Shown: in pieces, positions 44,846 through 45,578 of the stretch
How positions within the stretch are numbered: position 1 is the first letter of the stretch
Layout of the letters: each line of letters opens with the position of its first letter
Origin: Candidatus Aenigmatarchaeota archaeon
Lineage (GTDB): Archaea > Aenigmatarchaeota > Aenigmatarchaeia > CG10238-14 > SCSR01
Direction of reading: 5' to 3'
Assembly: GCA_038999725.1 (NCBI GenBank)
Contig: JAWBWS010000002.1
Span: forward strand, 64,001-128,000
Length of the DNA stretch: 64,000 bases
Notes under the pieces: model-generated
Seen by the model: the letters and a program-made list of their open reading frames with translations, nothing else
Databases searched by the model: none
What the model was told of the DNA's origin: nothing
Made by a program: the position numbers and the translations under genes

Positions 44846-45578
44846 TTGCCTGAGATATTACCTGAATACATGGGCTATGACAGGACAAATGAGTAGAGTT
44901 TAAAACTCGCTCAGTCAATTTGCTGTCTTCAGCCCGGATGGAAGATTGTTTCAAGTAGAATACGCAAGAGAAGCTGTAAAAAAAGGAACCACCTGTCTTG
45001 GTATAGTTTTTAAGAATGGTATCTTATTTGCCACGGTCAAACCAAAAACTCCTCTAATGGTTCCAGAATCCATAGAGAAGATCTTCCAAATAGATGATCA
45101 TGCCGCTGCCGTTGCTGCTGGTCTATTGGCAGATGCAAGGGTGCTTGTGAATCAAGCAAGGGTGAGAGCTCAAATCCATAAGATAACCTATGAGGAGGCT
45201 ATGGACATTTGGGGTCTTGCACGAACTGTTGCTGATAGAATGCAAATTTCAACGCTTTATGCAGGTTTGAGACCTTATGGTGTCTCTTTCTTGATTGGAG
45301 GAATTGATCCAACAGGAGTCCACTTGATAGAGGTAGACCCCTCTGGAATGTTATATGAATGGTATGCTTATGCGATTGGAAGAGGCTCTGTACTTGCTAA
45401 CAAGATTCTGAGGCAAAGGTGGAAACCAAATTTAAGTGAAGAAGATGCCCTAAAAATTGCCTTGGAGATTCTATCAAAAGTAGAAAAAGAGGGAGAAGCT
45501 GATATAGCCATGATAAAACTTGAGGAAAAGAAGTTCAAAAGGCTTTCGGAAGAGGAAATCAAAAAAATAAAATTTTAG
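44846..45578 (+). CDS. psmA: proteasome alpha subunit, spliced: join(44846..44888,44920..45578), 233 aa
   Basis: GAGGTGA RBS plus TTG. Exon 1 encodes [14 protein letters not shown] and exon 2 encodes [19 protein letters not shown] in another frame. Removing 31 nt gives [13 protein letters not shown]. Confidence 0.9.
44889..44919 (+). other. 31-nt bulge-helix-bulge-type intron in psmA pre-mRNA
   Basis: ATGAGTAGAGTTTAAAACTCGCTCAGTCAAT; internal hairpin; 3-nt bulges AA|A and AT|T flank helix (G)GAC/GTC(A); contains an in-frame TAG. Confidence 0.8.

Follow-up and report, generated by a model that had tools for sequence, protein, structure and literature searches.

In Thermoproteales, transfer RNAs (tRNAs) with several introns and tRNA introns at non-canonical positions are known. 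Among messenger RNAs (mRNAs), an intron bounded by a BHB motif (bulge-helix-bulge) has been described in the pre-mRNA of cbf5, a pseudouridine synthase gene, in Desulfurococcales and Sulfolobales (Watanabe 2002; Yoshinari 2006; Yokobori 2009, PMC2738675), and another one lies in the 5' untranslated region (UTR) of the HVO_1309 mRNA of Haloferax volcanii (PMC7714728). The latter paper, from 2020, states splicing of a coding sequence by the archaeal tRNA-splicing machinery for cbf5 alone. We analysed a stretch of 64,000 nucleotides (nt) from a Candidatus Aenigmatarchaeota archaeon (contig JAWBWS010000002.1, assembly GCA_038999725.1), hereafter the window, and in particular a 31-nt insert in its psmA gene, which encodes the proteasome alpha subunit. 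With a probability that we put at roughly 0.86, this insert is a BHB (tRNA-type) pre-mRNA intron spliced by EndA and RtcB in the only psmA coding sequence of the genome. From the sequence we infer its cleavage and ligation in the cell, as well as any effect on the level of expression.

Like the cbf5 intron, the psmA insert is short, lies inside the coding sequence, splits a codon and is bounded by a BHB motif with its cuts placed between bulge residues 2 and 3. Both are patchy among relatives, with gain and loss, and the tRNA-splicing endonuclease which removes the cbf5 intron is the enzyme predicted to act on psmA. Unlike cbf5, however, psmA is a different gene in a different archaeal group, here in a tiny hot-spring archaeon, and while cbf5 has one insertion point, at the codon of a catalytic Asp, psmA has eight of them, and a single gene can hold as many as three introns. 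Furthermore, the cbf5 introns mostly show unconventional motifs and go with a hetero-oligomeric EndA, whereas 35 of 42 central helices in psmA are fully paired and the EndA is homotetramer-like. Splicing of cbf5 was shown by cDNA and in vitro cleavage, while the psmA intron is known here from sequence alone. The HVO_1309 mRNA resembles psmA in the processing by splicing endonuclease at BHB sites, which is predicted for psmA, but its intron lies in an untranslated leader and the reading frame is independent of it. With multi-intron tRNAs, the psmA genes would share the enzyme pair, similar intron sizes, introns placed close together and probably an obligatory removal order; in contrast, their host is a protein-coding mRNA in which each cut must keep codon and frame. 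An earlier note on this DNA had stated that no psmA BHB intron was known, in agreement with the literature searched: no paper joining a BHB intron to a proteasome gene was found there (subscription journals and supplements lay outside the search), and in the texts available cbf5 of Crenarchaeota appears as the only coding-sequence BHB intron, next to the Haloferax 5'-UTR case. The eight sites, triple introns and micro-exons of psmA exceed what these texts describe for cbf5.

The psmA gene spans the region from TTG 44846 to a stop codon at 45576-78 and its product is identified by sequence as PsmA, both the fold domain and the alpha-specific N-terminal signature being present. Its elements are as follows.

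44834..44839, plus strand: Shine-Dalgarno-like GAGGTG, 6 nt 5' of the start codon; an AGGTGA-type motif precedes the homologous codon in orthologues
44846..44888, plus strand: psmA exon 1, with a TTG start and, by translation, a last base A that is the first of an Ile codon
44881..44882, plus strand: 5' strand CA of the outer helix h, pairing with TG 44921-22; mismatch after 2 bp
44883..44886, plus strand: exonic strand H(A) of the central helix, GGAC, pairing with 44914-17 (G.A, G-C, A-T, C-G)
44887..44889, plus strand: 5' bulge AAA, cut predicted by geometry between 44888 and 44889
44889..44919, plus strand: putative intron, 31 nt; under the strict consensus, no other excision of 12-89 nt brings back the conserved N-terminus
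44890..44913, plus strand: intron hairpin h', 5 + 5 pairs, with A44895 bulged and the loop at 44901-03
44894..44896, plus strand: in-frame TAG, which ends the reading of unspliced RNA after 16 codons
44914..44917, plus strand: intronic strand H(B) of the central helix, GTCA
44918..44920, plus strand: 3' bulge ATT, cut predicted by geometry between 44919 and 44920
44920..45578, plus strand: psmA exon 2, beginning with the TT of the Ile codon and open, in translation, to the stop
44921..44922, plus strand: 3' strand TG of the outer helix h

In the unspliced sequence the frame of exon 1 continues into AAT GAG TAG (44894-96), and a second frame is open from 44922 to the stop at 45576-78. Exon 2 carries the Pfam domain Proteasome (PF00227) at 9e-51 together with positions 7-23 only of the Proteasome_A_N profile (PF10584), which is complete, from 1 to 23, in the intron-less orthologue L007; by translation, the missing positions are encoded by exon 1. 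Removal of 44889-44919 rebuilds the Ile codon and yields a protein sequence that is uninterrupted in intron-less relatives. Indeed, most of 30 relatives' loci, including L007 and L008 of the same genus, encode the predicted junction without interruption. When all single excisions of 12-89 nt were tried in the window, 44889-44919 was the one candidate that restored the consensus, and it has BHB geometry. Cleavage of BHB motifs falls between bulge residues 2 and 3 (PMC2738675), and this very cut gives the conserved protein in the window and in the other interrupted genes.

The insert and its flanks contain all that the earlier note had described, namely the hairpin, the two bulges, the central helix, the exon pairing and the in-frame TAG, each at the position it had given. 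The hairpin h' is formed by TGAGT 44890-94 with GCTCA 44909-13 (one T.G) and by GAGTT 44896-900 with AACTC 44904-08, and in the predicted fold the partner of GGGCT 44872-76 is AGCCC 44931-35. For the 75-nt stretch a folding energy of -24.4 kcal/mol was obtained (z = -3.69), which none of 200 shuffles equals. Two 3-nt bulges thus stand on opposite strands around a 4-position helix, which in the window has 3 pairs plus G.A and is slightly relaxed. Of the flanking helices, h' has 10 bp in the window, while h has 2 bp there and is absent (xxxx) at the neighbouring AT/A site (here and below, a slash within codons marks the insertion point), so that many psmA intron copies are of the HBh' type.

In order to place the insert among relatives, 117 genomes of the same order were queried with an intron-less PsmA. 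A psmA gene was present in 113 of them, and the 5' region of each was compared; 112 genes were analysed, L070 being left out as a contig end cuts the gene. Uninterrupted genes account for 87 of the 112, while the other 25 are interrupted by 42 inserts. Among the 87, 81 match the strict residue pattern and four have a variant residue before MGYD; the last two, L077 and L090, have merely divergent N-termini, in which forced excisions gave poor geometry, and these were taken as negative controls. The inserts are 18-37 nt long (30-35 nt in 39 of the 42) and include two introns of L103 which were read by hand from the sequence, as well as two introns of L065 and L071 which come from a separate analysis. 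They occupy eight sites in the mature codons: GAA/TAT, T/AT ATG, TAT/ATG, ACA A/TT, AT/A GCx, GTx T/TC, GT/A TTT and CAG GT/A GAA, the window's being ACA A/TT. All eight lie within about the first 27 codons. Past EYA every locus is a single open frame of about 196-223 codons, with no downstream interruption seen. By family, 23 of the 65 genes are interrupted in the family to which the window belongs, against 2 of 23 in a second one and 0 of 24 in the other five. Metagenome contigs, some of which may share samples with the genomes, agree with this picture: in 7 of the 12 closest relatives, introns of this kind occupy the same sites, and their helices are all 4/4. Outside the order no psmA introns were found among the matches listed, in a search of 273 phylum genomes of which 265 gave a match and with 120 matches beyond the listing: the listed ones begin at query residues 2-8 and are free of stops, three low-scoring genomes are cut by contig ends, and the normal scorers G183 and G259 give ordinary single-piece matches. 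The proposal of the earlier note to align psmA across related genomes has thus borne fruit in two ways, with the predicted junction encoded by intron-less orthologues and analogous inserts present in 24 other genomes.

This distribution bears on the notion that the 31 nt are an artefact of assembly or sequencing, in favour of which we found nothing and which we consider extremely improbable, given that homologous inserts, 84-87% identical, sit at the same base in G007, G105 and G096 and that further inserts occur in separately assembled metagenome contigs. It also bears on translational bypass of the kind known from phage T4 gene 60, in which the ribosome would take off before the TAG, skip the hairpin and land downstream. 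The stop two codons into the insert and the stable hairpin do resemble the coding gap of gene 60, which shares a stop and a hairpin with psmA but differs by its matched take-off and landing codons and by the lack of a BHB motif. In psmA, however, there is no matching pair of take-off and landing codons that would restore the conserved frame. The split Ile codon draws its bases from both flanks of the insert (A/TT in the window, AT/A at the neighbouring site), so whole-codon hopping cannot rebuild it. Inserts are moreover found in all three codon phases at the eight positions, and bypass needs neither a conserved 4-bp helix, nor two 3-nt bulges, nor covariation. We therefore regard bypass as very improbable.

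The geometry of the inserts was next assessed across the census. A canonical excision was taken as one with a 4-position helix paired at 3/4 or better, 3-nt bulges cut after base 2 and an adjoining hairpin of at least 4 pairs. Among the excisions restoring the protein, at most one per insert has this geometry, with no other good one in any row. Of 38 resolved rows, 31 meet the definition; in the other seven, either the helix is 4/4 and the start of the hairpin is shorter or interrupted, or the row was mis-resolved (L103) and read by hand. Over the 42 introns the central helix is paired in 161 of 168 cells (143 Watson-Crick and 18 G-U), with 35 introns at 4/4, and shuffling the intronic strands within sites never reached the observed pairing in 2000 trials.

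Furthermore, the exonic strand of the helix varies between relatives and the intronic strand follows it. At the TAT/ATG site, GAG-T or GAA-T stands with xCTC or xTTC (5 G-C and 7 A-U); at the window's site GGAC, GAAC or GCAC stands with GTCx, GTTx or GTGC (including GTCC, GTTC and GTGC in relatives); and at the Phe-codon site CCGT, CCAT or CTAT stands with xCGG, xTGG or GTAG. Such exon codon variants, matched by changes in the intron, speak for a structure kept by compensatory change. In MAFFT alignments, the window's site (9 sequences) has 92.9% of its cells paired against a shuffle mean of 76.6% and 12-43% when slid, with 5 pairs changed on both sides; the TAT/ATG site (12 sequences) has 91.1% against 69.0%, with 9 such pairs; and the Phe-codon site (8 sequences) has 96.9% against 84.5%, with 11. 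Over the three alignments the slid controls are paired at 12-47%. The lower five pairs of the hairpin, in nine site-B1 introns, are paired at 97.7%, four of them changing on both sides. The structures were derived from the same sequences as these pairing statistics.

The most serious rival to splicing is a truncated PsmA. In that case the insert would be kept in the mRNA and translation would begin at TTG 44946 or later, giving a protein with no gate and no YDR/SPDG segment, while exon 1 would be a leader or a small upstream open reading frame (ORF). Indeed, a mechanical ORF list gives a 210-aa psmA ORF from TTG 44946, and gate-deleted alpha subunits of Thermoplasma still assemble. Of the Pfam N-terminal signature, which counts 23 positions, such a protein would, however, lose 17. 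In addition, exon 1 keeps its conserved peptide: over the 13 codons upstream of the insert in six single-intron genes (window's or neighbouring site), the 15 pairwise comparisons hold 92 synonymous against 18 non-synonymous differences, the latter being E/D, I/M and L/M. This synonymous excess indicates that exon 1 is still translated as protein, which argues against both a downstream start and a pseudogene. Moreover, BHB-defined cuts can bring each of the 25 interrupted genes back to the full consensus, and a mere leader leaves unexplained why the intronic helix strand follows the codon changes of the exon. Given these observations, a truncated product seems quite improbable to us.

A further possibility is a dead or decaying psmA, in which the insert would be what is left of a small mobile element, or the result of a replication slip, and the gene a pseudogene. 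The in-frame stop and the frameshift in the genomic reading are what such decay would look like, and the genome is strongly reduced (730 kb in 9 contigs, estimated 93% complete). Against this, the gene is the sole psmA of the genome: no second copy was found in the 93% represented, but only one paralogue at 28% identity, so the second intact psmA which the earlier note had named as part of a refutation did not turn up. The reading frame stays open over the remaining ~208 codons, with 84-88% identity to same-genus proteins, and inserts of the same type are found in 24 other genomes, where the exons are intact and compensatory changes occur. The insert has no second genomic copy either: blastn-short of 44883-44920 against the whole genome returned only itself and chance words of up to 14 nt, which rules out a repeated mobile element of the type of a miniature inverted-repeat transposable element (MITE). 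Likewise, Rfam on 44600-45200 gave no family matching the insert and one chance-level match. Decay of the gene is accordingly judged highly unlikely.

The enzymes that splicing would call for are encoded. There is one EndA gene (L033 1474-2040, minus strand, at 86.7-87.3 kb of contig C1 of G000, the genome of the window) of 188 aa. PF01974 (94 bits) and PF02778 (66 bits) both match this one ORF, which has the N-terminal as well as the catalytic domain; it aligns end to end with the homotetrameric M. jannaschii enzyme 1a79 (1e-28). One intact RtcB is present as well (PF01139 at 548 bits, no stops). Compared with 1a79, EndA has six extra residues (in VKLVRGPKAP) just before the segment aligning with ..EH.., the region of the catalytic histidine. 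In other lineages, inserts near the catalytic histidine broaden the substrate range of EndA, and DPANN EndA with extra loops have been linked to disrupted tRNA genes (PMC5829648). Taken together, the intron-less junction, the 24 other genomes, the covariation, the presence of EndA and RtcB and the single psmA speak strongly for the tRNA-type BHB intron proposed in the earlier note, with predicted cuts at 44888/44889 and 44919/44920.

Several points nevertheless weigh against a BHB intron. The sole EndA has a homotetramer-like size, and the homotetramer type was regarded as strict for canonical BHB motifs (PMC5829648). The first position of the central helix is a G.A mismatch in the window, as it is in G007, G026 and G096, and the window's outer helix h has 2 bp followed by a mismatch (two pairs, one mismatch, three pairs, two mismatches). 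The canonical register, at -15.8 kcal/mol, also lies 8.6 kcal/mol above the minimum-energy fold of -24.4 kcal/mol, which pairs GACAG 44879-83 with CTGTC 44923-27 instead; as read from their sequences, this alternative pairing cannot form in G007 or G096. As for the statistics, the best-geometry excision was kept where several restored the protein, and this choice somewhat inflates the paired fraction, although the window intron had a single candidate; the related genomes are, besides, non-independent samples. BHB-like patterns are furthermore common by chance in AT-rich DNA, so that the motif alone proves little: a loose pattern has 10-39 matches per 245-nt psmA 5' region among the loci listed. 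Genome-wide, the motif with a 4/4 helix and a hairpin of at least 5 pairs occurs ~18,000 times, 2,069 of these joining ORFs, and 277 at a hairpin of at least 7. The genome-wide scan for BHB motifs that the earlier note had suggested did not deliver, since a strict descriptor gave 263 matches in the genome and 258 and 287 in shuffled genomes, and motif scans have no power to find further mRNA introns in the host genome. What goes beyond chance, in the sequences compared, is a BHB cut that restores a conserved protein together with covariation in relatives.

One motif of that kind may be mentioned as a separate observation. Outside the window, on contig C1 of G000, minus strand, 232616-232651, there is a BHB-like motif (helix 4/4, hairpin of 9 bp, 35 nt) whose removal fuses a 497-codon frame (...ELHPTHFGKLC...EITKGL) to a long frame (...ADIFIDGKFIG). 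From the encoded residues, this would seem to be where the two halves of RNA polymerase subunit B meet; the gene may simply be split as usual, and the motif due to chance.

If the 31 nt are indeed spliced, the events could run as follows. After transcription, the BHB would fold: the end of exon 1 (GGAC plus AA) would base-pair with GTCA, the 3' end of the intron, flanked by the 10-bp intron hairpin and, opposite to it, by a short exon-exon helix, which would leave two 3-nt bulges with the 4-position helix between them. EndA (188 aa, homotetramer-like) would then cut after the second base of each bulge, that is after 44888 and after 44919, and RtcB would join the exons and probably circularise the intron. 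The joined mRNA, with ACA-ATT-GCT, would be translated from TTG 44846 into a full-length PsmA with its gate motif, whereas a ribosome on unspliced RNA would stop at TAG 44894 and make a 16-residue peptide only. That the cell uses this stop as a control point, in line with the regulatory switch suggested in the earlier note, is in our opinion unlikely. On the RNA side, 0 reads fell on 43300-47000 from three raw-read hot-spring metatranscriptomes (3-5% of each sampled) and one contig set.

The introns are not only numerous but also clustered, as the eight insertion points fall in 60 nt of the mature psmA mRNA. Five genes carry three introns each, in G007 (L004), G028 (L019), G090 (L107), G050 (L111) and G085 (L117), which leaves micro-exons of 9 nt, as in L004 (TT GCC GTT T), or of 7 nt, as in L019. 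The contigs L128 and L129 also have three BHB introns within about 60 nt of the mature mRNA. In the triple-intron genes, a helix strand of one intron begins immediately after the splice site of the previous one, and this adjoining suggests an obligatory order of removal.

The window intron (L003) is 87% identical to the introns of two other genera (L065 and L071) at ACA A/TT, with third codon positions of psmA that are only 46-53% identical between L003 and L065/L071, i.e. with synonymous sites near saturation, while the same-genus contigs L128 and L129 have an unrelated hairpin at this site. Such an identity across genera, together with unrelated hairpins within the genus, points to sequence-level constraint, transfer or replacement. 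It was also observed that many introns at different sites (L019, L022, L071, L075, L097, L107, L108, L111, L117 and others) share the apex AG-(T/C)TAAT-N-(G)CT, for example CAGTTAATTGCTG, GAGTTAATCGCTC and TAGTTAATTACTA, which puts stop codons in more than one frame. From its sequence, the shared apex suggests that the introns are mutually related or that the loop is functional. We tentatively propose, at somewhat less than even odds, that in this order a family of mini-introns, turning over and possibly mobile, has a hot spot in the first ~27 codons of psmA. The position near the 5' end could be selected since unspliced RNA there yields a harmless short peptide and not a truncated ring subunit.

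The surroundings of psmA were also examined. The gene order is RNase P p30 (43391-44107), CutA1, Pop5 (44396-44755), psmA, SBDS and Rrp4 according to Pfam, which by its content is the archaeal RNase P / proteasome / exosome gene cluster. No homing-endonuclease gene was found by Pfam on the genes adjoining psmA. The CutA1-family gene (44109-44423) stands between RNase P p30 and Pop5 and has a 28-nt overlap with the Pop5 ORF. In the SBDS gene (window 45593-45710) there is no ATG, GTG or TTG between an in-frame TAG (45593-95) and the conserved N-terminus. With ATT 45605, 5 nt after AGGGTG, as the start, the product spans positions 2-88 of the 88 of the SBDS_N profile, and with the first ATG (45710) only 32-88. 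By this comparison the start codon of SBDS is likely ATT, and a 14-nt intron at the start of the gene was rejected in its favour. At psmA itself, ATT, ATC or ATA stands at the position homologous to the start codon, with the same AGGTGA motif ahead, in 18 of the 59 orthologues that match the N-terminal pattern (L005, L007-L009, L011, L014, L024, L025, L029, L041, L042, L044, L046, L074, L078, L081, L082 and L087). Judging from these codons, near-cognate AUH starts may be common in the order.

As the mechanical ORF starts at TTG 44946, it is plausible that gene callers will truncate PsmA, leaving out the gate segment, or call it a pseudogene in about a fifth of the order's genomes, and estimates of completeness or metabolism relying on such calls would be off. 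The gene affected is an essential housekeeping gene, present in one copy in a very small genome, and its introns, which are short and have well-defined exon partners, come with many independent comparative witnesses. With eight sites in 27 codons and micro-exons between them, psmA is a natural system for the gain, loss and order of removal of BHB introns. If the hot-spot reading were true, it would imply repeated gain, for instance by reverse splicing or by transfer between lineages, and tRNA-type splicing of mRNA would be routine in these cells and not the curiosity of a single gene.

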